A stretch of 60,096 nt of DNA from Bauldia sp. Lineage in GTDB: Bacteria > Pseudomonadota > Alphaproteobacteria > Rhizobiales > Kaistiaceae. Under the pieces are notes generated by a model. The model searched no databases. It was not told the DNA's origin and saw only the letters and a list, made by a program, of their open reading frames with translations. The position numbers and the translations under genes were made by a program. The stretch covers positions 1-60,096 of the forward strand of contig JBBDMC010000215.1 in assembly GCA_040878485.1 (NCBI GenBank). The letters are read 5' to 3'. Positions 2,055-22,917 of this stretch are shown piece by piece; within the stretch, counting starts at the first letter, position 1, and each line of letters starts with the position of its first letter.

Positions 2055-2849
2055 ATGAAGCTCATCCTCCTCACGGGCGCGGGCGGAAACGTCGGCCAAA
2101 TGATCCGGCCGATGCTCCGCGCCAAGTGCCGGCTCCGCGTCTCCGACGTGAAAGACATCGCCCGCGACGGGCAAGAGGAGTTCGTCCGAGCCGATCTCAG
2201 TGACCTCGGCGCCGTCCGCCGGGCGGTTCGCGGCGTCGATGCGGTCGTTCATCTCGGCGGCTATTCGCTCGAAGCCGACTTCGAGACCATCCTTCCGGCG
2301 AACATCGTCGGCATCTACAATCTCTTCGAGGCGGCGCGGCAGGAAGGCGTCAGGCGCGTCATCTTCGCATCAAGCGGCCACGTCGTCGGCTTCTATCCGC
2401 GCTCGCAGACGATTCCGGTCGAGGTAACGCTGCGGCCCGACTCGCGCTATGGGGTCAGCAAGGCCTTCGGCGAAGCCATCGCCGGCCTCTATGCCTACAA
2501 GTACGGCGCCGAGGTCTTCACGATCCGCATCGGCCACATCCTGCCGCGGCCGGAGACGATACGAGATCTCGCCATCTGGCTGAGTCCGCGCGATCTCTGC
2601 CAGCTCATCGAGATCGGCCTCGAAACGCCAGGCATCCGCCATGAGATCGTCTACGGCATCTCCGACAACCAGCGCCGCTGGTGGGAGCGCGACAATGCCG
2701 CCCGGCTCGGCTACCGGCCGCAGGATCGCGCCGAAGACTACGCGGCGGAGGTCATCGCCCGCGACCGGGGCGCAAGCGGGGACGACCGCGTCGATCGCAA
2801 TCAGGGTGCCGACTTCTGCGTCGCCGAATCGATGGCGCCGGTGTCGTGA
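2055..2849 (+). CDS. udh: Uronate dehydrogenase-like NAD-dependent epimerase/dehydratase
   Basis: MKLILLTGAGGNVG Rossmann N-terminus. VHLGGYS..FE.IL.ANI.G.YNLFEAAR, FASSGH..G.YP and RPDSRYGVSKAFGE closely follow the Agrobacterium Udh pattern as I recall it. AGGAG lies 8 nt upstream of the ATG at 2055. Confidence 0.8.
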   Translation: MKLILLTGAGGNVGQMIRPMLRAKCRLRVSDVKDIARDGQEEFVRADLSDLGAVRRAVRGVDAVVHLGGYSLEADFETILPANIVGIYNLFEAARQEGVRRVIFASSGHVVGFYPRSQTIPVEVTLRPDSRYGVSKAFGEAIAGLYAYKYGAEVFTIRIGHILPRPETIRDLAIWLSPRDLCQLIEIGLETPGIRHEIVYGISDNQRRWWERDNAARLGYRPQDRAEDYAAEVIARDRGASGDDRVDRNQGADFCVAESMAPVS

Positions 2850-4555
2850 CTGCGTCTGACGAACGGCGCGGCAACGTGTTTCACGAGGATCTGCCGGCCG
2901 CGGCTGTGAGGGCGGTGGCGCTGGCGTCTCGACTTTGCGACGATTGCGTCCACTATCACGGCAGCTGGCCGGCGCTGAGGCTGGTCGAGCACGGTGGCCT
3001 CGATTTCGACCGGCCGCATCTGCTGCCTCTATTCAGAGGGCTGGCGAGCGATCCGCCGCGCCGCCGCTGGCTGATAGCCGGGATGGCCGACAGCGGCCTC
3101 GTCGCGACGGTCGGCTCGGCGATCTGGCCGATCGTCCCGGAGGCCCGGCTCACTCTGGTCGACCGGTGCGAAACGCCGTTGACCCTGTGTCGCGAATACG
3201 GTCGGCGACTGGGCCGGACACTCGACACGGTGCGCGCCGACCTCAACCAATTCACGCCGCCGGAGCTTCAGGATGTGGTCTTCGCGCATTCGGTCCTTGC
3301 CCACGTCCCCGGGACGGAGCGCGCGGCGATGGCGGGGCGCTTCCGTCAGTGGCTGGCACAGGACGGCTGTCTCGTCCTCTCCGCAAGACTGGACGACGTT
3401 CTTGATCAGGATGACATCGATCGACAAACCGATCCGGCGCACATCCGCAAGATGATCGCGGTGCTGAAAAAGGAAGGCGTGGACGACGAAGCGACCCTGC
3501 GCCAGCTGTCCGTCTGGCTGCCGCGCAGTTTTGGCGAGCGGTCGCGCCGCCGCGGCGCGCACGCGACGATCGCCGATCTGACCACTCTTCTCGAACAAGT
3601 CGGCTTCGCCGAGGCGCGAATCGTTGCCGAGTTCGCCCCGCCACCGCGGCAGCTCCGACCGTCGGGAAAGAACCAGCGGCGGGCGATCATCGCCGCCTAC
3701 GCCGCGCAAAACCGGCCGGCCCGCCGGCTCGGCGCGAACCCATCAGAGAAGTCGGCTCAACAGACCGAACACCGGCGCCTTTCCAAACAAGCCGGAGATG
3801 AAGAGGTATTGCGCCGCGGCAACCACCAGGATCGCAGCGATCAAGGTACCGATCGAACCCCGCCCGACATGACGTCGCACCAGCAGCAAGAATCCGGCGG
3901 TCGCCGGAAGCAGGCCGACGAGGGGCAAGGCAACCAGAAGGCTGACGAAGGCGGCGCCGATGCCGAGATCCAATTCGGGCGACCCAGTTCGGGCGCGACT
4001 TGGCAGGCGAACCAACGCCACGATCGCGGCGCCGATCAGCACGAGCGACACGCCGGTCGGGGCTATCCACGCGCTGCCGCGATAGTCGGACGCCGCGATG
4101 ATCGCACCAAGCGAGAGAACGATCATGCCGACGAAGGCGGCCACCGCCGCGGCGGGGGCGAAGCTCTCGTCCGGAGTGCGCACCGCGGCGGGCCGCCTCA
4201 GCCGGAAGAGGACCACCAGCAGAACCGCTCCGAGGATGATCACGCCCGGTCTCAACAGGGCAGAGGCGCCGAAGACTTGGATGGTCTTGCCGAGCGACGT
4301 TTCCGCGATCGGGCCCATGACGAAGCCGAGCAGAAACGGGGCCCGTGGAAGGCCCGCCGCTCGCAGCAAGAGACCGAGCATCCCGCCGACAATGAATTGA
4401 CCGAGGGTGAACAAGCTTTCCGTCGCGCCGAGCGCGGCGGTGACGATGGCAACCAGGGCGAAAGGCACGATCATTGCCGGCCGCGGCGCCGTCATTCGCA
4501 CAAGGAAGGGCACGACGATGAGAAAGAGGGGAATTGTCAGCAGGTTGCCGAATAG
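2846..4555 (+). CDS. Methyltransferase-like protein, paralogue 1. The homologous part is about 2846-3735; there is no in-frame stop until 4555.
   Basis: GTG at 2846 overlaps the udh stop (GTGA). The translation aligns along its length with the 12449-13372 product: C-x2-C-x2-YH, LI.G.AD.GL.AT, DRC.TPL.LC, DV...HS, WL..DG.LV.S. Beyond about 3735 the frame is a shadow of tctA. Confidence 0.55.
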   Translation: MTASDERRGNVFHEDLPAAAVRAVALASRLCDDCVHYHGSWPALRLVEHGGLDFDRPHLLPLFRGLASDPPRRRWLIAGMADSGLVATVGSAIWPIVPEARLTLVDRCETPLTLCREYGRRLGRTLDTVRADLNQFTPPELQDVVFAHSVLAHVPGTERAAMAGRFRQWLAQDGCLVLSARLDDVLDQDDIDRQTDPAHIRKMIAVLKKEGVDDEATLRQLSVWLPRSFGERSRRRGAHATIADLTTLLEQVGFAEARIVAEFAPPPRQLRPSGKNQRRAIIAAYAAQNRPARRLGANPSEKSAQQTEHRRLSKQAGDEEVLRRGNHQDRSDQGTDRTPPDMTSHQQQESGGRRKQADEGQGNQKADEGGADAEIQFGRPSSGATWQANQRHDRGADQHERHAGRGYPRAAAIVGRRDDRTKRENDHADEGGHRRGGGEALVRSAHRGGPPQPEEDHQQNRSEDDHARSQQGRGAEDLDGLAERRFRDRAHDEAEQKRGPWKARRSQQETEHPADNELTEGEQAFRRAERGGDDGNQGERHDHCRPRRRHSHKEGHDDEKEGNCQQVAE

Positions 4556-5641
4556 AACAGCCCAGGCGAAACTGATCGCCATCGGCAAGTCCGGGCCGAG
4601 GAATCGCGGCCCAGGCTCGAGGCCGAGCATGGCTAGTCCACCCATGAGGATCGCCATGCTGGAACTGCCGGGGATGCCGAAATAGATCGTCGGGATCAGC
4701 GCACCGCCTTCCTTCGAGTTGTTGGCGGCTTCCGGAGCGATGACGCCGGCGAGCGAGCCGGTGCCGACGGGCGGTCCCTCCTTGGTAGTCCGCGCCGCGT
4801 CCGCGTAAGCGATCCAGACCGCGACGCTCGCTCCGACCCCCGGCATCATCCCGATCACGATGCCGATGACGGTGCTGCGCAACAACACCATGCGGTAGCG
4901 GAGCGCCACGGCCATGCCGCGCAGCAGTTGGCGGAACTCGGCACGCATTGCCCGCGACGCGGTCACCGGCGCCGGCGAGCGGGCAAGGGAAAGCATCTCG
5001 GGCACGACGAACAGCCCGCCGATGATCGACACCAGTTGCAGACCGTCCCACAGTTCCAGACGATCGAAGGTGAAGCGCGGCACCGCGGTCAGGCGATCGA
5101 GCCCGACGGTCGATGCCAGCAAGCCCAGCGCCGCCACGGCGATGCCGCCAGCCACTTGGCGGTCCGACAGCGTGGCGACGAGGGATAGCCCGAGAAGCGA
5201 AAGCACCAGAAACTCCGGGGCCCCTAGATTGGTGATGATCGGCCGCGCCACGGGAATGACCGCGATGAAAAAGATCGCACCAACGATGCCGCCGATCGAA
5301 GAAGCCGACAGGCTTGCCCCCAGCGCCTCGGAGCCGCGGCCTTTCTGTTGCAGCTGAAAGCCGTCGATGACGGTTGCTGCTTCCGAGGCGGATGTGGGCA
5401 GGCCGTAGGCGATCGGCGTGATGGAACCGGACGTATGAACGACTGAGTGAAGTGCGAGAAGGAAGACGGCGCCGGCCAGCGGATCGAAGGCGACAACCAG
5501 CGGCAGAGCCAGCAACAGGCCGATGCGGCCACCGATCCCCGGTAGGATGCCGGCCAGAAAACCGAGGAGAATCCCAAGCACGAGGGCCGCCAGCCGTGCC
5601 GGCTGAAGAACCGCCATGAGTGACCCTGCGATAGCATCCAT
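3743..5641 (-). CDS. Tripartite tricarboxylate transporter permease, TctA with a C-terminal TctB-like extension (module 1)
   Basis: TctA hallmarks: GILPGIGG, GLPTSASEAATVIDG, VIAPEAANNSKEGGA, IPGSSSMA. An extra hydrophobic tail of about 140 aa follows. ATG at 5641; an alternative TTG lies at 5677. Confidence 0.85.
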   Translation of the reverse strand: MDAIAGSLMAVLQPARLAALVLGILLGFLAGILPGIGGRIGLLLALPLVVAFDPLAGAVFLLALHSVVHTSGSITPIAYGLPTSASEAATVIDGFQLQQKGRGSEALGASLSASSIGGIVGAIFFIAVIPVARPIITNLGAPEFLVLSLLGLSLVATLSDRQVAGGIAVAALGLLASTVGLDRLTAVPRFTFDRLELWDGLQLVSIIGGLFVVPEMLSLARSPAPVTASRAMRAEFRQLLRGMAVALRYRMVLLRSTVIGIVIGMMPGVGASVAVWIAYADAARTTKEGPPVGTGSLAGVIAPEAANNSKEGGALIPTIYFGIPGSSSMAILMGGLAMLGLEPGPRFLGPDLPMAISFAWAVLFGNLLTIPLFLIVVPFLVRMTAPRPAMIVPFALVAIVTAALGATESLFTLGQFIVGGMLGLLLRAAGLPRAPFLLGFVMGPIAETSLGKTIQVFGASALLRPGVIILGAVLLVVLFRLRRPAAVRTPDESFAPAAAVAAFVGMIVLSLGAIIAASDYRGSAWIAPTGVSLVLIGAAIVALVRLPSRARTGSPELDLGIGAAFVSLLVALPLVGLLPATAGFLLLVRRHVGRGSIGTLIAAILVVAAAQYLFISGLFGKAPVFGLLSRLL

Positions 5642-5719
5642 CAGTGGCCACACCGCGAGCCGGAAGGCCGAGAGCAATCGGACGAGAAGACAGTGGTCAT
5701 CGGCCCGCGACCGACCAGG

Positions 5720-6760
5720 TCAGCAGGTGCGGTCGCCGACGGCGCGACGCCGCCCGCAGGCGATGGCCGCCTGCAGGTCGGCTTGCAGTGCCGCCTTATC
5801 GGCGAGAAGTGCTCCGACAAGGCCCTGGACTTCGGATCCGCTGAGCGGGTCGATCGGAATCTTGAGTTGGGCCGCTTCGGCAAGGAATGCTTCGTCGTGG
5901 ACGGCGGCATCGAATGCAGTTCGCAGCGCATCGACATCCGCTGCGTCGGCATTCGGCGGCGCGGCAATCCAGCGACCGAGATTGCCGCTGAGCTCCATCA
6001 GGTCGGCGAGCTTGGAAACCGGCTTGGGGGCGATGTCGCGAAGCAGCGGGGCGGAAACCGGGGCGCCCGGATTGGGCACAGCGTTCATTCGCAGGATGAC
6101 GGCGGCGCCCTCCTCTTCGACCAACCGGCGCACGCTGCCATATGAGCCGACGACGATCTGTCCCTCGCCGCTGATCATGGCGAGAGCCCGTTGCCCGCCA
6201 TTGTATCCGGGCACCGGTTTGATGGACAGCCCGAGGATGTCGTTGAGGACGTAGCACTCGAACGAGGCACGCGACGCGCTGGTGCTTGCCGGATAGACGG
6301 CGGGCTCGGAACGGTTGGCGAGGTCTGCGATCGAATTGATGCCGCTGAGCTTGCTCGCCACAACGACGCGCTCGTCGACGGCGAGCTTTCCCAGCCAGTT
6401 GAATGCGCCAAGATTGAACTTGACGTCCTCCTCGTCGAGGATCTCAGCGTAGAGGAGGGCTGCTTCAAAGAGACCGATGGTGAGGTCGCCGGCAGGCGCC
6501 TCGAAAATTTGCTTCGCCGCCAGACGGCCGTCCGCAGTCTGAACGACCTCCACGGTCATTCGCGACTGCGGCAGCGCGAGGGCGAGGTGTTTGGCGAAGA
6601 GCCTGGCGTAGGCCTCGTAGCCGCCTGACCCCTCGTTGCCGATCAGAAAGGCGATGCGGCGCCGGTCAAGGACGCCGGCCAGCGCCTCGGTGAACCGGCC
6701 CCAGACGAGCCCGGCCGCGGCAAAGGCCAGGATGTCCCGTCGCGACGAACGCCTTGTCAT
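5720..6760 (-). CDS. TctC/Bug-family periplasmic substrate-binding protein, divergent (module 1)
   Basis: MTRRSSRRDILAFAAAG is a Tat-like signal at the ATG at 6760. Length and layout are Bug-like, and the gene sits directly upstream of tctA in the same orientation. Confidence 0.75.
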   Translation of the reverse strand: MTRRSSRRDILAFAAAGLVWGRFTEALAGVLDRRRIAFLIGNEGSGGYEAYARLFAKHLALALPQSRMTVEVVQTADGRLAAKQIFEAPAGDLTIGLFEAALLYAEILDEEDVKFNLGAFNWLGKLAVDERVVVASKLSGINSIADLANRSEPAVYPASTSASRASFECYVLNDILGLSIKPVPGYNGGQRALAMISGEGQIVVGSYGSVRRLVEEEGAAVILRMNAVPNPGAPVSAPLLRDIAPKPVSKLADLMELSGNLGRWIAAPPNADAADVDALRTAFDAAVHDEAFLAEAAQLKIPIDPLSGSEVQGLVGALLADKAALQADLQAAIACGRRRAVGDRTC

Positions 6761-6992
6761 CTGGGATCCCCAGCGGTCAGAAACGACCGAATCTAGCACG
6801 GTTTCCAGATCAAGGAGCGCCGCGGACACGTGGCCGGCGGCTGCAGACCCTTGATTGCGTCTATGATCGTCCCGTCGATGATGGCGCGTGCCAGACCGGG
6901 GGTTATTCTTCTTGCCGAAACACAAAGCTTCGCCGGGATACCGCTGGGCGCGCGAGCACGTCCTGAAGAGCTCGGCCGCGACGGCCGCCTGG

Positions 6993-8324
6993 ATGTTCCA
7001 AGTGAAGCTCGAAGAGAGTCAGTGGTATTCCGCCAACCAGCACCTGGCCTATCAGACGAAGCGGCTGGGCGAGCTGCTCAGGCACGCCAAGACCAACGTC
7101 CCATTCTACGCCACCGCCTATAAGAGCGCCGACATCGATGTTTCGCGCGACCCTGATCCAGCGACGTGGCGGCGCATTCCACTGCTGACGCGCGCCGCCC
7201 TGCAGGGCAACAAGGCGGCGCTGACGGCGGCAAGAGTGCCGCCCGATCACGGCAAGTCGATCGCGGTCGCGTCTTCCGGGTCGACGGGGACGCCCGTCGA
7301 GGCTCTGGCGACCGAACTCACCGGCACCTGGAATCGGGCGCTGACGCTGAGAGCCCAGCTCTGGGCGCTGAAGCGTTTCGACTATCGCCTAGCCGTCATC
7401 CGACGCTATCCGAATAAGGTCGCCGATTATCCGGCGGGTCGCTCCCTGCCGGCCTGGGAGAACGAGATCACGCTGCCAGTCGTCTCCGGCCCTGTCTTCA
7501 GCCTCGCCGCCACCACGCCGACGACGGAGCAGGTCGAATGGCTGAACCGGCACCGGCCCGAGGTTCTCCTTACCTATCCGTCAATATTTGCCGGGCTGCT
7601 CGACGCGGCCGCAAGCGGCGAGCTCAAGCTGCCAGGTCTCAGGCGAATCCTGACGATCAGCGAGATGCTCGCCGACGAGGTCCGGGTCGCGGCGCGGCGA
7701 ACGCTCGGCGTCGAGATCTTCGACGCCTATTCCGCCAACGAGACCGGTTCGATTGCCCTGCAATGCCCCGAAGGCCACGGCTATCACGTGCAGTCGGAAG
7801 CCCTCGTGGTCGAGGTCCTCCACGACGACGGCCGCCCGTGCGGGCCCGGTGAGACCGGCCGTGTCGTCGTCACCCTCCTCCACAACTACGCCCTGCCGCT
7901 CATCCGCTACGAAATCGGCGACTTCGCGACGGTCGGCCGGCAGTGTCGTTGCGGTCGCGGCCTGCCGGTGCTGACCCGGATCATCGGGCGACAGCGCAAC
8001 ATGCTGATCGGGCCGAAGGGAGAGCGATCGCGCCCGGCTCTCGGCTGGAAATACATCAAAGGGATGGCACCGATCACGCAGGGCCAGTTCATCCAGCATA
8101 CGATCGAAAAGCTGGAGGCAAAGCTGGTTGTCGCGCGACCGCTCGTCGAGGCCGAGGAAGCCCGAGTGCGCGAGCTCCTGACGTCGCGGATGCCTCAATT
8201 CAGCGAAGTCGTCTTCACTTACGTCGAAGAGCTTCCGCGCAGCGAGGGCGGAAAATTCGAGGACTTCATCAGCCTGGTTGGCAAGCCTTCCCCGACGGCC
8301 GACAAAGGTGCCGCACGATCATAA
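6993..8324 (+). CDS. Phenylacetate-CoA ligase (PaaK)/CapK/F390-synthetase-family adenylate-forming enzyme
   Basis: SSGSTGTP P-loop, YSANETG, and the YEIGD...C.CGRGLP....IGR C-terminal pattern. The product is 443 aa from the ATG at 6993. Confidence 0.85.
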   Translation: MFQVKLEESQWYSANQHLAYQTKRLGELLRHAKTNVPFYATAYKSADIDVSRDPDPATWRRIPLLTRAALQGNKAALTAARVPPDHGKSIAVASSGSTGTPVEALATELTGTWNRALTLRAQLWALKRFDYRLAVIRRYPNKVADYPAGRSLPAWENEITLPVVSGPVFSLAATTPTTEQVEWLNRHRPEVLLTYPSIFAGLLDAAASGELKLPGLRRILTISEMLADEVRVAARRTLGVEIFDAYSANETGSIALQCPEGHGYHVQSEALVVEVLHDDGRPCGPGETGRVVVTLLHNYALPLIRYEIGDFATVGRQCRCGRGLPVLTRIIGRQRNMLIGPKGERSRPALGWKYIKGMAPITQGQFIQHTIEKLEAKLVVARPLVEAEEARVRELLTSRMPQFSEVVFTYVEELPRSEGGKFEDFISLVGKPSPTADKGAARS

Positions 8325-8353
8325 CCCGGCTGAGGAAAAGCCAGAGGCAGCCG

Positions 8354-9034
8354 CTATGGGGGCGGAGGCGGAGGCGGCGCGAGGCTAAGGCGCAGGCCTA
8401 CCATCAGGCTGTGATTGTGGAAACTGTCGGTGACCCCGTAGGGAGCCGTCTCTGACGCGAAAAAGGAGCTGCTGGCGCCAAAGTAACGGTAGTCCATCGT
8501 GAAAGTCGCGCGCGGGGCGAACTGATATCCGAAACCGGCGCCCAACTGATAAGCGAAGACGCAGTTTTCGTCGTCGATATCGCCGCTGCCGCCGACAGTC
8601 CCGATTTCATCGACCTTGAGATGGACGTTGGCGACGCCAATACCGCCGCCAATATAAGGCTTGAATCGTCCCGTCCGATTGAAGTCGTACCAGCCATTGG
8701 CCATCAAGGCGAAGAAGCGGGCCGATCCAGCGCTTACGCCTTCATTGCCGATCGTGAACGGGTTGACGTCATTGCCACGCGACGACAACTCGCCCTCGAG
8801 ACGGAATCCCGACATTGTCGAGAAGCCAAACGCAGCCGCCCCGGCGAAGCCGGTCTCGAAATCCAAGCCGACCGTGTTGAGGCTTGGCGGTCCGTCATAG
8901 GTGATGTCGCCAAGCCAGCTTCCACCGCCCATGACGGCGAAATAGGACTGGTCGAACATACCTTGCGCTGACGCAGAGCTGCCGTAGGCGACAAGCCCGA
9001 TAACCGCAACGCTGCCGAGGAGAGTCTTCTTCAT
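8354..9034 (-). CDS. Outer-membrane beta-barrel protein (Omp25/Omp31/OmpW-like) with a C-terminal poly-proline tail
   Basis: MKKTLLGSVAVIGLVAYGSSASAQG signal peptide. Alternating aromatic/Gly beta-strand pattern (GWYDFN, YIGGGIGV, YQLGAGFGYQF). Ends in ...LRLSLA followed by seven Pro. Confidence 0.8.
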   Translation of the reverse strand: MKKTLLGSVAVIGLVAYGSSASAQGMFDQSYFAVMGGGSWLGDITYDGPPSLNTVGLDFETGFAGAAAFGFSTMSGFRLEGELSSRGNDVNPFTIGNEGVSAGSARFFALMANGWYDFNRTGRFKPYIGGGIGVANVHLKVDEIGTVGGSGDIDDENCVFAYQLGAGFGYQFAPRATFTMDYRYFGASSSFFASETAPYGVTDSFHNHSLMVGLRLSLAPPPPPPP

Positions 9035-9397
9035 GCGCGCCCCGAGTCCGCTTAGTAGCGCCACAGAAAACAAAGTTGCGCCAATCCTCCGCCGACTTCA
9101 ATGTTCCCACCGTATGCGAGGGGCCGCAACCGCTTAATTCGATCGGCCGTTGCAAATCTGCTTCACTCGGCGATGCCGGATTTCCACCGAGATTGCCGGT
9201 TTCGTGCATCTGTTGCCGGACCGCAACACCCTCCGGAAAACGCTCTCGGCGCGACCGTTTCCCTGGCGAGTCGCTGCATCGCCTCGGCCGCCAACCGAGA
9301 GCCCTGCGGCAACGGAATTGCGGTTTCTCGTGCGCCCGCATAGCGTGCGCCCGGCGTCGCGCGGCGAACGCCGGGCCGATCCTTGGGGTTCTCGATC

Positions 9398-10492
9398 ATG
9401 GCAAGCACGACAACGCTTACCCGTCGCCGGCTGGCTCGCTCGATCGCTGCGGCCGCGGCGCTCGCCGCGGCGCTCGCCGCCGCGCTCGTCCTCGCTACGG
9501 GAGCGATCGCCCAGGACGCGCTCGGCGCGCTGAAGGGCCAGAGCATCCGCCTCGTCATTGCAGCCGGCGCCGGCGGCGGATCGGATCAGATGGGCCGTAT
9601 GCTCGCCGCCGCCCTCGGCCGGGCATTGCCCGAGACCGCCGTGCACGTGCAGAACCGCGGCGGCGCCGGCGGCGGCCTGGCGATGTCCGAAGTCCAGAAC
9701 GACACCGGCAACCTGGTCACGCTCGGCTTCGCCAACAACGGCCCGGTGTATATCCAGCTGTCGGAGACCGCCGCCGCCCAGTTCGATCTGACCGAGCTTA
9801 AATGGATCGGGTCGGTGGGCGACAACCAGCGGCTTCTTGTCATGCGCAAAGGACTCGGACCGCCGTCCCTCGACACGCTGCGCAACCTCGATCGTCAGCC
9901 GATCCTCGCCGTCGCCGGCAGCGCCGGCAGCGCCGGCTACGTCGAGGCCATGCTGTTCAACGCCATGCTGTCGCTGCGCATGAAAGTGGCCGCCGATCTC
10001 GACGATCCGGTTGTGCAGACGATGATTCTGGCCGGCGACGTCGACGCGACCCTGGGCAGCTACGCCTCGCTGAAACCGATGCTCGATGCCGACGAGGTCG
10101 TCCCGCTCCTTCTCTACGCCAAGGACGGCGCCCCCCAAGGGCTGAGGGACGTGCCGGCGATCGCCGATGTCGTTCAGGCGGGGCAACTCGACCAGCTCGT
10201 CGACATGCTCGCCAGCCTCAGCCGCAGCGGTCGCATCGTCGTGGCTTCGCCGTCGATCCCGGCGGAGCGGATCGCCGCCCTGCGCGCGGCGTTCGATATC
10301 GCGGTCGCCGATCCGGTCTATGCGCAAGAAATGACGGCCGGTGACTACGTCATCAATGCCACCGCCGGCGCCGACATCGAGGAGCGCATCAAGACGTACT
10401 TGGCCATCGGCGGCGATTTCCATGCGCTCTTCAAGCGTTACGTCGAATGCGGCCAGAAGATCAGCGACGGCGCTGCGACCGCTTGCGAATGA
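9398..10492 (+). CDS. TctC/Bug-family periplasmic substrate-binding protein (module 2)
   Basis: Tat/Sec-like signal (TRRRLARSIAAAAALAAA...AQD). Bug-type motifs IRLVIAAGAGGGSDQMGR and NRGGAGGG. Confidence 0.85.
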   Translation: MASTTTLTRRRLARSIAAAAALAAALAAALVLATGAIAQDALGALKGQSIRLVIAAGAGGGSDQMGRMLAAALGRALPETAVHVQNRGGAGGGLAMSEVQNDTGNLVTLGFANNGPVYIQLSETAAAQFDLTELKWIGSVGDNQRLLVMRKGLGPPSLDTLRNLDRQPILAVAGSAGSAGYVEAMLFNAMLSLRMKVAADLDDPVVQTMILAGDVDATLGSYASLKPMLDADEVVPLLLYAKDGAPQGLRDVPAIADVVQAGQLDQLVDMLASLSRSGRIVVASPSIPAERIAALRAAFDIAVADPVYAQEMTAGDYVINATAGADIEERIKTYLAIGGDFHALFKRYVECGQKISDGAATACE

Positions 10493-10542
10493 CCGTTGCG
10501 GGCGACGAGCCGCCGCCGTCGGCTCTCGGGTAGGGCCGCGGG

Positions 10543-12441
10543 GTGCTGGACCTTTTCGGCCTTGAGTCGTGGTTGGCGCCCCTCGTCGCGCTGACCACGG
10601 GAACCCTCCTCGGCTTATTTTACGGCATCCTCCCCGGCATCGGCGGCCGCGTCGGCATTCTCCTGTCGCTGCCGATGGCGACCCTATTCGACCCGCATTC
10701 GGCCGCGATCTTCCTGTTCGCGATGCACGCCGTGGTCCACACCGGAACCTCGATCCCGGCGATCGCGTTCGGTCTGCCTTCCACCGCCTCCGATGCGGCG
10801 ACCGTCATCGACGGCTACCCGCTCGCCAAGATGGGCCGCGCCGGCGAGGCCCTGGGCGCCAGCCTCAGCGCCTCCGCCATCGGCGGCGTCCTCGGCGCCC
10901 TCGCCTTCCTCGCCTGCATTCCCATCGCCCGGCCGCTGGTGACCAGCTTCGGCCCCCCGGAATTCCTGGTCCTGGCGCTGATCGGTTTGACGATGGTCGC
11001 CTCGCTGTCGCGCGAAGGCCTGTTGCCCGGCTTCGTCGTCGGCTGCATCGGCATCCTGTTCGCCATGGTCGGCTACGGCATCCGGACGGGCGAGCCCCGC
11101 TTCACCTTCGGCGTCCTCGACCTGTGGGACGGGCTCGATATCCCGGCCTTGGTCTGCGGGGTGTTCGTCGTTCCCGAGATGCTGTCGATCAACCGCCACG
11201 CCGACCCGGACGCCCAGCGCCGCGCGGTGACCACGACCATCGCCGATGTCTTCCGCGGCATGTTCGTCACCTTTCGCCATACCGCGGTTCTGCTGCGCAG
11301 CACCTTCTACGGCATCGTCATCGGCATCATGCCGGCGGTCGGTTCGTCGGTCGCGGTCTGGCTCTCCTACGGCTATGCCGCGCAGACCACCAAATCGGAG
11401 ATTCCCTTCGGCAAGGGGGCCATCGCCGGCGTCATCGCGCCCGAGGCGGCCAACAACTCGAAAGAGGGCGGGGCAATGGTCCCGACCCTGTTCTTCTCGA
11501 TCCCCGGCAGTTCGAGCATGGCCATCATGATGGCGGCGCTGGGCTACGTCGGCGTCAGCACCGGACGGTCGTTCCTCACCGACAACATCGGTCTGTCGTA
11601 CGCGCTCGCCGCCACGGTTCTGCTGGCCAATATTCTGGCCATACCGGCGTTCTTCGCGGTGGTGCCGTTCCTGGTCCGCTTGTCGGCGCTCCGCCGCGAA
11701 GCGGTCGCCCCGATCGCCATCGCCCTTTCGGTCACCGCGGCGTTGATCAGCACGCCACGCTTTTCGACCGTCGTTCAGGTCGCGGTCGCCTCCGCCCTCG
11801 GCCTGATCCTCAAGTGGGCGGGATGGCCGCGCGGCCCCTTCATCCTCGGCTTCGTGATCGGCCGTCTCGGCGAGACCTCGTTTCACCAGACCGCGGTGAT
11901 TTGGGGTTGGTCGGCGATTTTTCGCCCGGTCACCGCCCTGCTGCTGGTCGCCCTCGCAGGCTGGCTGATCTACGTCGTGGCGACGCGGCCGGTCGCCAGC
12001 CTGCCCGGTTCCGCGAGCCGGACCAGGGCCGTCGCGGCCGGGCTGTTCGCATTCTTCGTGGTCGTGATTGCCTGGAGCCTGACGCTGAAGTTTGCCGCCG
12101 CCGCCGTGCCCCTCGCCGCCGCGGCCATGGGCCTTGTCTGCAGCGGCCTGATCGTGGTCGCGGGGCGCCGTTCCGCGGCGGTCGACGACAAGTCGGAGGC
12201 GATGCGCCACGTCGCCCTGTATGCCGGGTACCTGCTGATCACGCCGCTGATCGGACTGATCGCATCGAGCTTCGTCTTTGTCGCCGCGGCGATGCGCCTC
12301 AACGGCAGCAGGATGTCGCCGGCGCTGATCGCGGCGTTGGTTTTGGCGCTGTCCGAACTGGCCGTGCTGACCCTGGTTTTCGATGTGATCATCGAGAAGG
12401 AAATCGTCGGCCGAGTATTGTGGGCTATCCTGGGATATTGA
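10543..12441 (+). CDS. Tripartite tricarboxylate transporter permease, TctA with a C-terminal TctB-like extension (module 2)
   Basis: Shares the TctA motifs of 3743-5641 (GILPGIGG, GLPSTASDAATVIDG, VIAPEAANNSKEGGA, IPGSSSMA) plus a hydrophobic extension of about 145 aa. No separate tctB gene is present. Confidence 0.85.
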   Translation: MLDLFGLESWLAPLVALTTGTLLGLFYGILPGIGGRVGILLSLPMATLFDPHSAAIFLFAMHAVVHTGTSIPAIAFGLPSTASDAATVIDGYPLAKMGRAGEALGASLSASAIGGVLGALAFLACIPIARPLVTSFGPPEFLVLALIGLTMVASLSREGLLPGFVVGCIGILFAMVGYGIRTGEPRFTFGVLDLWDGLDIPALVCGVFVVPEMLSINRHADPDAQRRAVTTTIADVFRGMFVTFRHTAVLLRSTFYGIVIGIMPAVGSSVAVWLSYGYAAQTTKSEIPFGKGAIAGVIAPEAANNSKEGGAMVPTLFFSIPGSSSMAIMMAALGYVGVSTGRSFLTDNIGLSYALAATVLLANILAIPAFFAVVPFLVRLSALRREAVAPIAIALSVTAALISTPRFSTVVQVAVASALGLILKWAGWPRGPFILGFVIGRLGETSFHQTAVIWGWSAIFRPVTALLLVALAGWLIYVVATRPVASLPGSASRTRAVAAGLFAFFVVVIAWSLTLKFAAAAVPLAAAAMGLVCSGLIVVAGRRSAAVDDKSEAMRHVALYAGYLLITPLIGLIASSFVFVAAAMRLNGSRMSPALIAALVLALSELAVLTLVFDVIIEKEIVGRVLWAILGY

Positions 12442-12448
12442 GGCGCGC

Positions 12449-13372
12449 TCAGCCGAGCTTCTTGAGAACCGCGATCAGCCGGCGCCGGCGCACGACGCTG
12501 CCGCCGACGGTCGCTTCTCGGCCCATCTCTTCGACATCGATCGCGGTAAACGGCGAGGCGGCGAACAGCGCCAGCATCTCCCCCTTGGTCCCGTATTCCG
12601 ACAGCGCAACGCTCTCCGCCGCCACGTGGCGGCCAAGACGAGCGATGAAGACGTCGTACGGTTCAGGCAGCGACAGGCCGCCCGACTCGATCATGTCCAT
12701 CAGCGTGGCGACCATTTGCGGGCGTCGAGGCGGCTCGCCCGCGGAACGCAGCGATTGTGAAAAGACGAGGCGGCCGTCCGCCTTGAGCCAGCGCGCCAGC
12801 AACGCCAGCAGCGCGCCGTGGCGCGCCTTCGCCACGGCGCGGAACAGGCTGTGGACGACAATGACGTCCGCCGCCGCCGAAAGGTCGGTGTCGGGAACCT
12901 CGACGAGGTGGGTCGATACGTCGAGGCCATTCCGGGGCCCGTAAGCGGCGCACAGTTCGAGCGGCGTGCCGCAGCGATCGAGGACCGTGTAGCGCACGCG
13001 CCCCGCGACCTCCGGCCCGGCGAGAAACGCCGCGCGCGCGGCGGTGGCGAGGAGCCCCGTATCCGCCGATCCGACGATAAGGACGTCGATGGCGTCGCCG
13101 TGGCTCGCCTTGGCGGCGAGCAATCCTGCCACAATGCTGATGATCCTCCCGCGATCCACGCTAATCCCGGCGGCGGGGTTAGCCACACGTCGTCCGCAGA
13201 AGGCAATGTGATAGTCGGCGCAGTCGCGGCAATGCCGGGCCGCGATTCCGACCACGTCGCGGAAGTTGCCGGCAAGGTCCTCGCCGAACGTTGCCGGATC
13301 GGAAACGCCTGGAGTATCGCCGCCGCTCACTTTGCTCACATGAGCGCGTCCGTAACAGTCAAACGATGCCAC
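12449..13372 (-). CDS. Methyltransferase-like protein, paralogue 2
   Basis: 307-aa ORF with a Rossmann-like core, paralogous to 2846-3735. Its stop lies 7 nt from the stop of the convergent tctA. GTG at 13372 overlaps the rhaI stop; an alternative GTG lies at 13339. Confidence 0.7.
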   Translation of the reverse strand: MASFDCYGRAHVSKVSGGDTPGVSDPATFGEDLAGNFRDVVGIAARHCRDCADYHIAFCGRRVANPAAGISVDRGRIISIVAGLLAAKASHGDAIDVLIVGSADTGLLATAARAAFLAGPEVAGRVRYTVLDRCGTPLELCAAYGPRNGLDVSTHLVEVPDTDLSAAADVIVVHSLFRAVAKARHGALLALLARWLKADGRLVFSQSLRSAGEPPRRPQMVATLMDMIESGGLSLPEPYDVFIARLGRHVAAESVALSEYGTKGEMLALFAASPFTAIDVEEMGREATVGGSVVRRRRLIAVLKKLG

Positions 13373-14654
13373 CGCTCCCGCCGCTCACCGCCGGCCGTTG
13401 GCCGGCGACCTTGGCGCGGTACTTGGATGCCCGGTAGGTGGCGATCGGGTCGATAGCGCCGCCGTTGCCGGCGCGGGCCTTCGCCAGGATCGCCCCGACG
13501 TCGGTGGTGTAGGCGCGCTTCAGCGACTGCGCTGCCATCAGCGCGTCATTTTTTTCCTGATAGCCGTCGAGGGCGGCGCGGTCGACGAGCAGCGCCTGCG
13601 CGTAGCCCCGCAGGATTTCGATCGCGCTGGTGATCAGGCTCTCGATCGGATCGGTGACGTTGTGCGATTGATCGATCATGTAAGACGGCTTGAAGCCCTT
13701 GGCCTTCCGCTCGGCGGCGTCCACCAGTTCGTTGAAGACGAGAAAAAGCTGGAAGGGATTGATCGACCCGGAGTCAAGATCGTCGTCGCCGTATTTCGAA
13801 TCGTTAAAATGGAAACCGGCGAGCTTTCGGAACTGGATGAGGCGGGCAACTATCATTTCAATGTTGACGTTCGGCGCGTGATGACCGAGGTCCACAAGGC
13901 AGAACGCTTTGGGCCCTAGTTCCATGGCGGCGAGGTAGTTCGTCCCCCAGTCCTGGATGACGGTCGAATAGAACGCCGGCTCGTAGAGCTTGTGCTCGAG
14001 GAAGACGCGCCAGTCGGCGGGCAGCGCCTTGACCACCGTCTTCATGGCGTCGAGGTAGCGCTCGAAGGCGCGGGTGAAATTCGACTGGCCGGGAAAGTTG
14101 GAGCCGTCGCCGATCCACACGGTCAGCGCCTTCGACCCGAGCTTCTCGCCGATCTCGATGCACTCGATGTTGTGGGCGACCGCCTGGTCGCGGACCGCTT
14201 TGTCGGTATGCGACAGGCTGCCGAACTTGTAGCTCCGCTTCTGCCCGGCCGAATCCTGAAAAGTGTTGGAGTTGATCGCATCGAAGGCGAGGCCGAGCTT
14301 TACGGCCTTCTGCATCAGGCCCTTCAGGTCCTTCACCTTGTCCCACGGGATATGAAGCGAGACCCTTGGCGTCGCGCGGCCGAGCTGGTGGATGACGGCG
14401 CAATCGTCGAGCTTGTCGAAGATGTTGCGCGGCTCACCTGGCCCAGAGAAGCGGGCGAAGCGCGTGCCGCCGGTGCCGACGCCCCAGGATGGGATGGCGA
14501 CTTCGAAACGCGCGACCGCCTTGGTGATCTTGTCGATATCGACCTTGCGGCGCGCGAGCTGCTCGCCGAGCGCCTCGTAGTCGGCGGTAAGCGCTTTCTG
14601 CTCCTTGGCGTTCTGCTCGGCGATGAGGTTCTGGTCGATCGGACCGGCAGTCAT
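13359..14654 (-). CDS. rhaI: L-rhamnose isomerase (rhizobial / Pseudomonas stutzeri type)
   Basis: 431 aa, with EVAIPSWGVGTGGTRFARF and a TIM-barrel isomerase pattern. It sits downstream of rhaD, as in Rhizobium rhaDI. Confidence 0.9.
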   Translation of the reverse strand: MTAGPIDQNLIAEQNAKEQKALTADYEALGEQLARRKVDIDKITKAVARFEVAIPSWGVGTGGTRFARFSGPGEPRNIFDKLDDCAVIHQLGRATPRVSLHIPWDKVKDLKGLMQKAVKLGLAFDAINSNTFQDSAGQKRSYKFGSLSHTDKAVRDQAVAHNIECIEIGEKLGSKALTVWIGDGSNFPGQSNFTRAFERYLDAMKTVVKALPADWRVFLEHKLYEPAFYSTVIQDWGTNYLAAMELGPKAFCLVDLGHHAPNVNIEMIVARLIQFRKLAGFHFNDSKYGDDDLDSGSINPFQLFLVFNELVDAAERKAKGFKPSYMIDQSHNVTDPIESLITSAIEILRGYAQALLVDRAALDGYQEKNDALMAAQSLKRAYTTDVGAILAKARAGNGGAIDPIATYRASKYRAKVAGQRPAVSGGSGGIV

Positions 14655-14679
14655 TGGTTCCCCCCGGAATGTGCTGACC

Positions 14680-16773
14680 TCAGCGCGTAAAGCTGATCGC
14701 GTTGCCGGCGTCGACGTTGAGTATGTTGCCGGTCGACTTTGCGCTCATGTCGGAGGCAAGGAAATAGATCGCCTCGGCGACGTCTTCAGGCAGCACGTCG
14801 CGCTTCAGGAGGCTGCGCAGGCGATAGTGTTCCTCGAGATCGTCAGGCTTCTTGTTGTAGGCGGCGGCGCGTTGCTGGCGCCACTCGCTGTTCCAGATCT
14901 TGGAGCCGCGCAGGACCGCGTCCGGATTGACGACGTTGACGCGAATGCCAAGGGGCGCGCCTTCCAGCGCGACGCTGCGGGCAAGATGGATTTCCGCCGC
15001 CTTGGCGGTCGAATAGGCGGCGGCGTTGACCGAGGCGGCGAGCCCGTTCTTGGAAGCGACGAAGACCATGACGCCGCCGAGATTCTGCCGCTTCATGACG
15101 CGGAAGGCTTCGCGCGAAACGAGGAAGTAGCCCTTCGCCAGGATATCCATGTTGCGGTTCCACAAGGCGAGCGGCGTATCCTCGAAGGGCGACGCCGAGG
15201 AAATGCCGGCGTTGGAGACGAGGATGTCGAGCCCGCCATAGTCGGCGAGCGCGTCGGCGAAGGCGTCGATCACGGCGTCTTCGTCGGTCACGTCCATGTG
15301 GACGCCGCGAACGTTGTCTTTGCCGTAGCTCTTGGCCAGCGCGGCCTGGGTCGTTTCCAGCGCCGGCTGGTCGATGTCGGCGATGACGACGGCGGCGCCG
15401 TCTGCCAGGAACCGGGCCGCAGTCGAGCGGCCGATGCCCGAGGCGCCGCCGGTGATGAAGGCAATGCGGCCGGAGAGGCCCTTCGGCTTTGGCAGGCGTT
15501 GCAGCTTGGCCTCCTCAAGCAGCCAGTACTCGATGTCGAAGGCCTCCTGCTCGGGTAGGCCGACGTACGTTCCTATGGACGAGGCCCCGCGCATGACGTT
15601 GATCGCGTTGCGGTAGAACTCGCCGGCGATGCGGGCCGTCGCCTTGTCGCGCGCGAAGGTGATCATGCCGATACCGGGAACGAGATAGACGACCGGATTG
15701 GGATCGCGCATGGCCGGGCTGTCGTGGTGCCGGCAGCGGTCGTAGTAGGCGGCATAGTCGGCGCGATAGCCGGCGATGGCGGGGCCAAGCCCGGCGACGG
15801 TCCGATCGACATCGCCGGACCAATCGACGACGAGCGGCCTGATCTTGGTGCGCAGGAAATGGTCCGGGCACGAGGTGCCGAGGGTCGCCAGTTCGCGCGC
15901 CCGCCTTGAGTTGACGAATTCGAGGACTGCCGGCGAGTCGTCGAAATGGCCGACCTTCTTCTCGTCACGCCCGATCTCGCCTCGGATCTGCGGCATCAGG
16001 CGGACAGCCGCGGCACGGCGCTCGGCCGCCTCGGCGCTGGCGACGGCCTTGCCGCCGAAGGCCGGCTTCGACCCGGCCCTCGCGGCAAGCCAGGTGATCG
16101 CCTTGTTGATGGCGGCGATCGTCGTCTCATAACAGGCGCGCCCGTCGTCGGCCCAGGTGAACAATCCGTGGCTTTCGAGAACCACGCCGACGGCCCTGGG
16201 ATTCTCGCGCGCGAACGTCTCGAGCATCAGACCAAGCTCAAAGCCCGGGCGCCGCCACTGCAGCCAGCCGATGGTGTCGCCGTAGATCTCACGCGTCAGC
16301 GCCCGCGAATTCTTCGATGTGGCGATCGCGATCACGGCGACCGGGTGCATGTGATCGACGTTGGTGCAAGGCAGGAAGGCGTGCAGCGGGGTGTCGATCG
16401 AGGGGGCGCGCGGATTAAGGTTGAACGTGCAGTGCGCGAGGAGCGCGACCATCTCGTCTTCGTGGTCAAAGCCGCGGTACAGCGTCTTCAGCCTCACCAG
16501 CCTGTCGAGGGTGAGGGTGGCAAAACCGTCGAGCTTCATCGAGCCGAGGTCGCCGCCGGAGCCCTTGACCCACAGCACCTCGACGTCGTTGCCGCCGAGA
16601 GGGTCGCGTTCGCGGAGCTTCGCCGACGTGTTGCCACCGCCGAAATTGGTGATGCGCACGTCGGAGCCGAGGAGGTTCGAGCGGTAGAGCAGCAGTTCCG
16701 GCGGGGTCAGCGTCGCGGCGCGTTTCTCGTCCCACTTGCTGGCGAGAAGGGGGCTGTCCATCGCTACGTTCAT
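14680..16773 (-). CDS. rhaD: Bifunctional rhamnulose-1-phosphate aldolase / short-chain dehydrogenase
   Basis: N-terminal class II aldolase/adducin-like half plus a C-terminal SDR (ITGGASGIGR ... YSTAKAA). ATG at 16773; an alternative ATG at 16761 gives MDSPLLASKWDE. Confidence 0.9.
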   Translation of the reverse strand: MNVAMDSPLLASKWDEKRAATLTPPELLLYRSNLLGSDVRITNFGGGNTSAKLRERDPLGGNDVEVLWVKGSGGDLGSMKLDGFATLTLDRLVRLKTLYRGFDHEDEMVALLAHCTFNLNPRAPSIDTPLHAFLPCTNVDHMHPVAVIAIATSKNSRALTREIYGDTIGWLQWRRPGFELGLMLETFARENPRAVGVVLESHGLFTWADDGRACYETTIAAINKAITWLAARAGSKPAFGGKAVASAEAAERRAAAVRLMPQIRGEIGRDEKKVGHFDDSPAVLEFVNSRRARELATLGTSCPDHFLRTKIRPLVVDWSGDVDRTVAGLGPAIAGYRADYAAYYDRCRHHDSPAMRDPNPVVYLVPGIGMITFARDKATARIAGEFYRNAINVMRGASSIGTYVGLPEQEAFDIEYWLLEEAKLQRLPKPKGLSGRIAFITGGASGIGRSTAARFLADGAAVVIADIDQPALETTQAALAKSYGKDNVRGVHMDVTDEDAVIDAFADALADYGGLDILVSNAGISSASPFEDTPLALWNRNMDILAKGYFLVSREAFRVMKRQNLGGVMVFVASKNGLAASVNAAAYSTAKAAEIHLARSVALEGAPLGIRVNVVNPDAVLRGSKIWNSEWRQQRAAAYNKKPDDLEEHYRLRSLLKRDVLPEDVAEAIYFLASDMSAKSTGNILNVDAGNAISFTR

Positions 16774-16872
16774 GGTGCGGTCACAGGGTCGAGCGCTGGT
16801 CGCGCCTGAGTGACAAGGGTGGCGGCCGGCGAGCATCGGCGGCAGTTACGGTCTCGCAAAACCCCTTCCGCT

Positions 16873-16966
16873 TGTCAATTAAAAGCGATCAGAAATACGC
16901 ATATTGCGTCGCAATGAGGTCGATTTGCGATGCAATGCTATCGGAAATGATCATTTTTGATTGACA
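16873..16966. promoter_or_regulatory. Divergent rhaD / rhaR control region with palindromes and two outward-facing TTGACA hexamers
   Basis: AT-rich island. ATTGCG-T-CGCAAT at 16903-16915 and TTGC-GAT-GCAA at 16925-16935. TGTCAA at 16873-16878 (TTGACA on the minus strand) and TTGACA at 16961-16966. Confidence 0.35.
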
Positions 16967-17005
16967 CGGCCGGTAAACCTTGATGATCTCTTCGCGGGAG
17001 ATTGC

Positions 17006-17815: not shown

Positions 17816-17868
17816 CAAGGCGGCCGAAATTCTTTGGTACTCGAGTAACCCATGGGAGGAACTGAGAA

Positions 17869-18864: not shown

Positions 18865-18881
18865 CATTCCTCCTGACCTGG

Positions 18882-18920
18882 CGGGAGGCGGCGCAGGCTG
18901 CCTCCCGTTCTTTGTCTTTC
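18882..18920 (+). terminator. Intrinsic terminator/attenuator-like hairpin after rhaS
   Basis: CGGGAGGC (18882-18889) pairs with GCCTCCCG (18900-18907). It is followed by TTCTTTGTCTTTC. Confidence 0.5.
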
Positions 18921-18956
18921 GGGTGGTCGGGTCGGCTTTTCCACCCACCGACGTCA

Positions 18957-20628: not shown

Positions 20629-20629
20629 G

Positions 20630-22913: not shown

Positions 22914-22917
22914 CCGG

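Follow-up and report, generated by a model that had tools for sequence, protein, structure and literature searches.

What would a carboxylate transporter have to do with an enzyme of the methyltransferase type, an adenylate-forming ligase and a small outer-membrane barrel? The question is raised by a block of eight genes at positions 2846–13372 of Bauldia sp. contig JBBDMC010000215.1, of which a stretch of 60,096 nt (about 65% G+C; hereafter the window) was analysed. Tripartite tricarboxylate transporter (TTT) systems import carboxylates via TctC proteins (PMC5812351). The block contains two modules in mirror-image orientation, each made up of a methyltransferase-like gene (MT1 or MT2), a fused tctA-tctB gene (TctAB1 or TctAB2, with the TctA parts TctA1 and TctA2) and a gene for a divergent TctC-like binding protein (SBP1 or SBP2), with the ligase and barrel genes between them. 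An earlier note on this DNA had described these modules as paralogous; all eight genes were found where it had placed them or within a few codons, and the paralogy goes far beyond chance.

Two cytoplasmic enzymes, a PaaK/CapK-like ligase and a Cys/His-rich protein with an S-adenosylmethionine (SAM) fold, often joined by a small barrel, form a core that recurs across many uncultured Proteobacteria, and in the lineage of the window this core recruited a TTT transporter consisting of a divergent TctC-like protein and a fused TctA-TctB. The window holds one complete five-gene unit (ligase, barrel, SBP2, TctAB2 and MT2) together with a mirrored MT1/TctAB1/SBP1 module. The mirror arrangement itself is a local curiosity, and the recurrent cassette with its MT–ligase–barrel core is the more valuable result.

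As to function, we tentatively favour the uptake of a carboxylate, possibly aromatic, followed by its ATP-dependent activation and SAM-dependent modification. An anionic organic acid, at best guess an aromatic or phenolic carboxylate, would cross the outer membrane, possibly via the barrel, would be captured in the periplasm by the TctC-like protein and would be imported by TctAB at the expense of an ion gradient. In the cytoplasm the ligase would trap the acid as an acyl-adenylate and then as a thioester or amide, and the MT-like enzyme would modify it with SAM. The envelope-spanning uptake and activation proposed in the earlier note would be of this kind. That the substrate is an organic acid, possibly an aromatic one, is hinted at weakly by the terephthalate-binding relative of the binding proteins, the PaaK-like ligase and the aromatic O-methyltransferases among the structural neighbours of MT.

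Recurrence of the core and of the five-gene unit

Look-ups of exact proteins, a single genome scan and a single metagenome scan together gave 71 related loci (L numbers), which were annotated by tblastn and clustering. Partners within 6 kb of MT were counted over 59 non-redundant MT loci and over a subset of 13 with at least 3 kb on both sides, with barrels taken as OMP_b-brl proteins or members of a second barrel-like family with signal peptides. A PaaK-like ligase accompanies MT in 32 of the 59 loci, a barrel in 18, TTT genes in 15 and a further protein, termed C5, in eight; the subset of 13 has a ligase in ten (ligase or C5 in 12), a barrel in seven and TTT genes in five. The ligase, which had been regarded as an orphan, is thus a family-wide partner of MT. 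The linkage of MT with TTT genes (tctA and/or tctC-like) that the earlier note had seen in the window, and whose absence elsewhere would have counted against its idea, also recurs in other genomes (15/59 and 5/13 loci), and it holds for part of the MT family only.

MT and the TTT genes are convergent in the window, L004, L007, L011 and L071 and co-directional in two loci from Cucumibacter (Devosiaceae; L001 and L010), where a tandem array of three or four TctC-like genes, with TctAB, follows MT. Because the orientation differs between loci, the association points to a functional link rather than to gene order passed on by descent. The number of tandem TctC-like genes beside MT ranges from one to four across the MT–TTT loci. 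The order and orientation of the right half of the block (ligase, barrel, SBP, TctAB, MT) are repeated in L004 and L007, while L071 has the five genes with tctA and the SBP gene swapped and L009, L017 and L018 hold partial copies. Barrel homologues adjoin the ligase in L004, L007, L018, L037 and L071. Ligase, barrel and module 2 together make up the recurrent five-gene unit; module 1 presumably uses the one ligase and barrel as well and may allow a wider range of substrates.

In the convergent arrangement, MT abuts the last transporter gene tail-to-tail with a gap of 0–9 nt (window, L004, L007, L009, L017, L011 and L071; Table 1) in cassettes that are 52–84% identical. The gap between the stops of tctA2 and MT2 is 7 nt, just as the earlier note had read it. 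A gap of 0–9 nt gives no room for a terminator, so that the convergent transcripts of MT and the transporter must overlap. In L004 (9767–12439) the unit lies beside an IS110-family transposase gene and an integrase gene, and in L071 (3209–3730) beside an integrase fragment; the finding of IS110 and phage-type integrase genes in two unrelated contigs suggests that the five-gene cassette moves as a unit. Unlike L004 and L071, the window shows no integrase or insertion-sequence genes flanking the block. The carriers are uncultured soil bacteria; those among metagenome-assembled genomes (MAGs) include Devosiaceae, Dongiaceae, Kiloniellaceae, Burkholderiales and Wenzhouxiangellaceae, and the genes beyond the ligase, barrel and TTT partners vary and resemble housekeeping genes.

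Two partner families extend this picture. A second barrel-like family ('cluster 4'; 300–350 aa, with a signal peptide), for which no Pfam, NCBIfam or PDB profile match was obtained, lies next to MT and the ligase in 11 loci, where it replaces the OMP_b-brl protein. C5 ('cluster 5') is a cytoplasmic protein of about 360 aa with the motifs GRVDYG and VYEINSNP, and stands beside MT mostly in loci that have no PaaK-like ligase; it has no Pfam or PDB match, and the NCBIfam search gave only a hint of a Ddl-like protein (D-Ala-D-Ala ligase, ATP-grasp) at E = 0.09.

Table 1. Positions of the block genes in the window, of the MT/transporter gaps and of examples of two partner families (ORF, open reading frame)
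Feature	Sequence	Positions	Strand	Remark
MT1, predicted class I methyltransferase fold, Cys/His-rich family, module 1	Window	2846..3711 (core)	+	ORF open to 4555
TctA-TctB fusion (TctAB1), module 1, 632 aa	Window	3743..5641	-	From ATG 5641; longest ORF starts at 5677
SBP1, divergent TctC-like periplasmic binding protein, module 1	Window	5720..6760	-	
PaaK/CapK-like adenylate-forming ligase, 478 aa	Window	6888..8324	+	
Small 8-stranded outer-membrane beta-barrel (modelled), 226 aa	Window	8354..9034	-	Signal peptide
SBP2, divergent TctC-like periplasmic binding protein, module 2	Window	9398..10492	+	
TctA-TctB fusion (TctAB2), module 2, 632 aa	Window	10543..12441	+	
MT2, predicted class I methyltransferase fold, Cys/His-rich family, module 2, 296 aa	Window	12449..13339	-	From GTG 13339; longest ORF starts at 13372
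MT/transporter gap	Window	12442..12448		
MT/transporter gap	L004	4249..4256		
MT/transporter gap	L007	8336..8342		
MT/transporter gap	L009	3215..3223		
MT/transporter gap	L011	965..966		
MT/transporter gap	L071	4769..4777		
Second barrel-like family ('cluster 4')	L012	8897..9952		
Second barrel-like family ('cluster 4')	L033	12209..13108		
Second barrel-like family ('cluster 4')	L039	7427..8416		
Second barrel-like family ('cluster 4')	L049	2824..3774		
C5 ('cluster 5')	L001	8867..9910		
C5 ('cluster 5')	L010	8781..9881		
C5 ('cluster 5')	L011	4083..5279		
C5 ('cluster 5')	L019	300..1385		

Origin of the two modules and damage to MT genes

TctA1 and TctA2 are 54% identical over 451 aa (E = 2e-156), which bears out the estimate by eye that about half of the TctA positions are conserved; the identities are lower for MT1 and MT2 (34% over 180 aa, E = 1e-16) and for SBP1 and SBP2 (23% over 319 aa, E = 5e-23). 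All that remains of the similarity in the DNA is an inverted repeat of 324 nt at 70% (4598–4921 and 11254–11577), and no other paralogues of the block genes occur elsewhere in the window. An assembly artefact is excluded because the paralogues are so diverged, and a recent duplication is ruled out with it, as each paralogue has closer orthologues elsewhere. The relatives of module 1 are found in L043 (TctA 62% and SBP 60% identical) and in L070, whose MT protein (P0038) is 87% identical to MT1, whereas those of module 2 are L007, L009 and L017 (TctA 83–84%, MT 61%), with SBP2 orthologues at 74–75% identity in L007 and L009, and then L004 (TctA 70%, SBP 57%, MT 52%); L071 is also related. Since each module is closer to other contigs than to its partner in the window, the two are anciently diverged lineages brought together side by side. 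Of the proposal of an old duplication that is not an assembly artefact, the second part therefore stands and duplication in place does not.

The two MT genes of the window differ in integrity. Positions 3709–3711 read CAA, where the 87%-identical orthologue P0038 of L070 has TAG and ends in RRAIIAAYAA, and the tctA stop lies 31 nt beyond that position in both sequences. MT1 runs without a stop until 4555, giving a 281-codon run-on (3712–4555) antisense through tctA1. The G+C contents at codon positions 1, 2 and 3 are 0.69, 0.80 and 0.51 in the run-on, a non-coding, antisense-type pattern, compared with a coding-type 0.75, 0.50 and 0.79 in the MT1 core. The physical overlap of MT1 with tctA1 that had been reported for module 1 is thus a product of stop-codon loss and not a designed overlap. 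The CAA is either a real loss of the stop, in which case the gene would be decaying, or a base-call error; MT1 may thus be in decay. Damage is also seen in L007, where only the last 112 codons of MT are left (8343–8979), and in L004, where MT (3414–4248) is split by a frameshift into pieces of 205 and 79 aa; the latter may be an error, as the contig name suggests a long-read assembly.

These three damaged genes bring up the explanation that no function is shared at all, that is, that the MT genes are passengers which happen to abut the transporter and that the block is a horizontally acquired, partly decaying patchwork. The proximity of cassettes to IS110 transposase and integrase genes (L004 and L071) fits such a view, as does the fact that both MT genes of the window trail unrelated genes on the same strand (overlapping an SDR gene in one case and following rhaI after 19 nt in the other). 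However, MT, ligase, barrel and TTT genes recur jointly in Devosiaceae, Dongiaceae, Kiloniellaceae and Burkholderiales at 30–60% identity and in varied gene orders, intact orthologous modules exist elsewhere for both modules of the window (L043, L009 and L017), and the MT core retains its coding-type G+C by codon position. We therefore consider it improbable that the MT genes are mere passengers, and return to the favoured uptake and activation of an acid by asking what each component contributes.

Component proteins and their possible roles

Both transporter proteins match PF01970 (TctA) over the whole profile (positions 1–423 of 423), with 325 bits for module 1 and 331 bits for module 2 against a cut-off of 28.9; in TctA1 the domain spans residues 29–450. 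Past residue 450 both proteins contain about five extra hydrophobic segments. The C-terminal 175 aa of TctA1 match PF07331 (TctB) with E = 0.0024 and 18.5 bits (positions 3–132 of 137) and the C-terminal 180 aa of TctA2 with E = 5e-4 and 20.6 bits (positions 3–134 of 137), in each case below the cut-off of 29.1. These end-to-end matches, taken with the hydrophobic segments, suggest that the extension is TctB-like and agree with the TctA-TctB fusion recognized in the earlier note; TctB is a poorly conserved family (PMC5812351). A weak TctB match is also given by the TctA homologue of L001. Fusion is the rule across the cassette family, in which only L014 (Kiloniellaceae MAG, 12267–14220) has separate genes, one for an unfused TctA of 503 aa and, after it, a 153-aa gene, in the order C-A-B and beside a ligase and MT. 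A PHA synthase gene lies immediately upstream of MT in that locus.

The binding proteins are more divergent. SBP1 has no Pfam match, and SBP2 matches PF03401 (TctC) with E = 0.15 and 11.9 bits, well under the cut-off of 27; the orthologue in L071 matches the whole length of the profile and comes closer to this cut-off (E = 1e-4, 22.4 bits), though still below it, and distant database relatives of SBP2 do carry PF03401. A profile built from ten sequences of this divergent subfamily retrieved 11 TctC/Bug/TBP structures from the PDB and nothing else, the best being a terephthalate-binding protein (E = 6e-17, positions 46–312 of 361). The designation 'TctC-like' consequently holds at the level of the superfamily, by profile, whereas the Pfam TctC threshold is not reached. 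The N-termini are Tat-like, with a twin-arginine-type MTRRSSRRDIL in SBP1. A C-terminal tail, absent from canonical TctC, contains an invariant Cys-Gly and in most members another Cys at or near the C-terminus (…ACGRRRAVGDRTC in SBP1, window 5720–5770; …ECGQKISDGAATACE in SBP2, window 10440–10492), and a disulfide loop could possibly form in this tail.

The ligase matches PF00501 (AMP-binding) with 37.9 bits (cut-off 29.9). Among the NCBIfam models that of the DVU_1553 family fits it best (129 bits, cut-off 300), it falls far short of the PaaK equivalogs (60.7 against 646 for TIGR02155 and 66.1 against 700 for NF041878), and its best PDB relatives are PaaK proteins (E = 1e-16); AjiA1, NatL2 and BagE/FevW are also among its sequence relatives. 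The translation displays the core motifs A3 (SSGSTGTP), A5 (YSANETG), A7 (YEIGD), A8 (IIGRQRN) and A10 (GGKFEDF) of ANL enzymes. It is a short ANL enzyme of the PaaK/CapK/F390-synthetase type.

The MT family is large and unnamed. A profile search over 1.84 billion representatives yielded 1,561 proteins with E ≤ 1e-3, of which 518 had E ≤ 1e-30, corresponding to about 1,500 clusters at 50% identity, where an earlier word-indexed search had given only 13 clusters. Among 150 matches listed the lengths range from 144 to 328 aa and most align over almost the whole profile; MT1 aligns along the whole length of the family. No specific Pfam or NCBIfam model exists for the family, whose members match the generic models Methyltransf_11/12/25 only (27 of 30 match Methyltransf_25; the matches of MT1 to Methyltransf_11/25 are weak); motif I lies outside these Pfam matches, which set in behind it at profile position 20. 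The AlphaFold2 model of MT2 (pLDDT 87.6) has a Rossmann-type core of alternating β and α elements. A Foldseek search with this model returned 916 PDB matches at E ≤ 1e-3, with a probability of 1.0 to class I SAM methyltransferases and TM-scores (TMq) of up to 0.51. The best 50 of the 916 are all class I SAM-dependent enzymes or uncharacterized proteins so annotated, and the nearest folds among these 50 are small-molecule enzymes, mostly aromatic O-methyltransferases (UbiG, MfnG, DnrK and MmcR); BioC and CmoA also match. MT is thus modelled as having a class I SAM-dependent methyltransferase fold.

Cys48, Cys51, His55, Arg62, Asp104, Asp132, Cys134, Pro137 and His174 are kept at 97–100% and Cys141 at 91% in 130 members of the MT family. 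An extra N-terminal helical part carries the motif C-x2-C-x2-Y-H, and strand 2 is followed by the signature D-R-C-x-T-P-L-x-L-C; the conserved Cys and His residues may form a metal site. Motif I departs from the canonical E/D-x-G-x-G-x-G, reading G-[SA]-A-D-[TS]-G in the whole family. Also conserved are Gly101/Gly106, Asp132, Asp158 and Asp169…His174, which we take to be the usual SAM-contact positions of the fold; the downstream acidic residues Asp132 and Asp158 are at positions where this fold usually binds the SAM ribose and adenine.

Motif I bears on an alternative in which the ligase and the SAM enzyme would produce a secreted carboxylate metabolite (a signal, a metallophore or an opine-like compound), the barrel would aid its passage and the TTT system would re-import the metabolite or its metal complex. 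This motif is atypical for methyltransferases and resembles the GGGDG loop of aminopropyl transferases, yet neither an aminopropyl transferase nor a nicotianamine synthase is found in the best 50 of the 916 Foldseek matches. Some relatives of MT weakly match RquA and CmoA, SAM enzymes whose activity is not plain methyl transfer, and PaaK-like ligases also form esters and amides in secondary metabolism, with AjiA1, NatL2 and BagE/FevW as relatives of the present ligase. TTT systems carry metal-citrate complexes. In many loci the MT–ligase–barrel triad has only housekeeping genes around it and no importer, as a producer module might; however, no exporter, further biosynthetic gene or regulator is conserved around it, and TTT genes occur in only about a quarter of the loci. 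On balance, production and recapture of a metabolite seem unlikely to us, and the uptake and activation of an acid is preferred to them.

The barrel matches PF13505 (OMP_b-brl) with 48.6 bits (cut-off 28.7) and gave no match to PF03922 (OmpW). Its AlphaFold2 model (pLDDT 88.6) has eight long strands, and the best Foldseek matches are Legionella porin III, OmpA-TM, NspA, Ail, OmpW, OmpX and OprG; the fold matches to OmpW and OprG (TMq 0.49–0.54) are not better than those to the non-channel proteins OmpA and NspA. Eight-stranded barrels as a fold class include both non-channel proteins and narrow hydrophobic channels. A channel role is therefore possible, and is not indicated by the modelled fold of the OmpA/OmpX/OmpW class. 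The barrel of the window ends in seven prolines, LSLAPPPPPPP (8354–8380), and its cassette homologues end in GGP or FGP, so that neither has the terminal aromatic residue that is usual in BAM-assembled proteins.

A barrel of this kind is central to a further explanation, in which the ligase and MT act on an exported envelope protein before export, the targets being the barrel or the Cys-tailed TctC-like proteins with their Tat signals, and the transporter supplies the group to be attached. The constant neighbour of both enzymes is indeed an exported barrel, drawn from two unrelated-looking families and ending in proline rather than an aromatic residue, and the tail of the TctC-like proteins with its invariant Cys-Gly and, in most, a further Cys might likewise serve as a target. 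TibC heptosylates its autotransporter, and in L031 (3294–11469) and L032 (5828–13067) a protein of 895 aa combines the ligase domain with a TibC-like GT9 glycosyltransferase; this fusion and MT sit between genes for a sulfotransferase and an HlyD/C39-peptidase ABC exporter in a raxSTAB-like arrangement. The fusion is confined to one lineage, however; nothing physically links the enzymes to the barrel, the nearest structural relatives of MT are small-molecule enzymes and no conserved small ORF or precursor peptide lies near the genes across loci. A cluster for a ribosomally synthesized and post-translationally modified peptide was also considered and rejected, as no small-ORF family is shared across the non-redundant loci and the C39-ABC/HlyD/sulfotransferase genes occur in L031 and L032 only. 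Modification of an exported protein or peptide is accordingly a doubtful explanation in our eyes. Even less probable is its most specific form, drawn by analogy with TibC, a new envelope system in which a metal-binding SAM enzyme and the ligase would attach or methylate a TTT-supplied group on the barrel or the TctC-like proteins before export.

The favoured uptake, activation and modification of an acid has its own difficulties. Its substrate class is a guess that draws on nothing more than weak similarities. Many loci have MT, ligase and barrel without a dedicated inner-membrane transporter (L012, L013, L033, L037 and L039), so that the core does not depend on import. Carboxylate catabolism does not usually involve methylation, OmpA/OmpX-class 8-stranded barrels are mostly not channels, and the TibC-like fusion in the peptide-export cluster of L031 and L032 points to macromolecular substrates. 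The MT gene is damaged in three cassettes (MT1 of the window, L004 and L007) and may be dispensable for the transporter. Finally, metagenomes or MAGs are the source of all 71 related loci.

Surroundings of the block and comparison with known systems

Two gene starts required a choice. For MT2, the GTG at 13339 is likelier than 13372 and coincides with a database gene call (P0001, 296 aa); the barrel start was placed at 9034, which gives 226 aa. The block is flanked on the left by an enolase-family gene, a DapA-like gene and an SDR gene, and on the right by a rhizobial-type L-rhamnose isomerase gene (771 bits) and then by further sugar-catabolism genes, including those for a sugar-type binding protein, an ABC ATPase and an FGGY-family kinase; farther right are arabinofuranosidases (GH51-like and GH127) and more ABC importers. 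Plant-sugar catabolism genes occupy 13359–24285 and 24372–48462 of the window. The GTG start of MT1 (2846–2849, GTGA) overlaps the stop of the upstream same-strand SDR gene, and MT2 begins 19 nt past the stop of the same-strand L-rhamnose isomerase gene rhaI (junction at 13340–13361); both MT genes may be read through from these unrelated upstream operons.

The absence of a TctDE-type or other regulator from the block, pointed out in the earlier note, was borne out, as none of the eight genes in 2846–13372 contains a regulator domain; the closest regulator gene is of the DeoR type (16961–17815) in the rhamnose cluster. A promoter scan of the block gave no promoter-like sites, and terminator-like sites were no more frequent than expected from shuffled sequence. 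The sole Rfam match in a search of the block for riboswitches and known RNAs, PtaRNA1 at 7188–7255 on the minus strand inside the ligase gene (24 bits against a gathering score of 47, E = 0.4), is almost certainly due to chance. No tRNA or flanking repeats marking an island were found in the window. A plasmid origin was dismissed, there being no DNA or protein match among 72,556 plasmids, and so was a role in anti-phage defence: PADLOC gave a single, partial match of MT2 to mad2 through a generic methyltransferase domain (E = 5e-7), and none of the five other block proteins scanned matched its models.

No described equivalent of the combination was found in the literature or in Pfam and NCBIfam, and the view that this is not a described system is upheld in that the search turned up neither a specific family for it nor a paper describing the gene set. 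To our knowledge, the substrate is known for only a few TTT transporters, and TctAB fusions are mentioned only as a rarity. The block defines a recurrent, mobile-looking cassette that ties a fused TctAB and a divergent TctC branch to MT, the ligase and the barrel. If the acid is indeed taken up and activated, TTT-linked metabolism in soil and peat bacteria would gain a new substrate class and a SAM-dependent step; if one of the other explanations is correct, the MT–ligase–barrel triad would represent an undescribed envelope or small-molecule pathway. Either way, concrete proteins are now at hand for ligand screening and enzyme assays.

The classical point of comparison is TctCBA, the citrate transporter of Salmonella (TC 2.A.80), with which the block shares a TctA-family permease of 12 transmembrane segments, a putative TctB-like part, a protein of the TctC superfamily and presumed carboxylate import. 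Unlike TctCBA, with its canonical C-B-A order and separate subunits, the block has the order C-A-B with A and B fused into a protein of 632 aa, its binding proteins lie below the Pfam TctC threshold and possess a Cys-containing C-terminal tail, it has no TctDE two-component regulator, and an MT gene is packed tail-to-tail on the last transporter gene. A TctAB fusion has been reported as a rare case in Paraburkholderia caribensis (Rosa et al., 2018; PMC5812351), and the sulfolactate TTT system slcHFG has the gene order C-A-B (PMC5812351). The block resembles SlcHFG in having tctB downstream of tctA and the P. caribensis protein in being a TctAB fusion, and differs from both in that its transporter is linked to genes for MT, ligase and barrel. 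Among solved structures, the one nearest to the binding-protein profile (E = 6e-17, about 265 residues) is TphC/TBP, which works with TpiBA (PDB entries 8HK9, 8HKA and 8HKB) and is the TTT binding protein for an aromatic dicarboxylate; the relation is at the profile level only, and the substrate cannot be transferred to SBP1 and SBP2.

The enzymes and the barrel likewise have counterparts. The ligase shares the short ANL architecture and all core adenylation motifs with the PaaK-like enzymes (CapK, F390 synthetase, DVU_1553, NatL2/AjiA1 and BagE), but it scores far below every equivalog cut-off. MT has in common with class I SAM methyltransferases (UbiG, DnrK, MfnG, CmoA and TehB) the Rossmann-type fold, the acidic residues at the usual SAM-binding positions and an 'LKPGG' motif; it differs from them in its TM-scores of 0.4–0.5, a motif I that is not GxGxG, the extra Cys/His-containing N-terminal part and the invariant Cys134, Cys141 and His174. 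In FadL-FadD (fatty acids) and in the porin PhaK with PaaK (phenylacetate), an outer-membrane barrel and an acyl-CoA ligase take up and trap an acid, and the block shares this logic, with an outer-membrane barrel gene beside the gene of a ligase that would trap the imported acid; unlike FadL, which is 14-stranded, or a porin, the barrel of the window is an 8-stranded OMP_b-brl protein of the Omp25/opacity type. Each part thus belongs to a known superfamily; it is for the combination, the fused TctAB with its sub-Pfam TctC branch and the unnamed MT family that no description was found.

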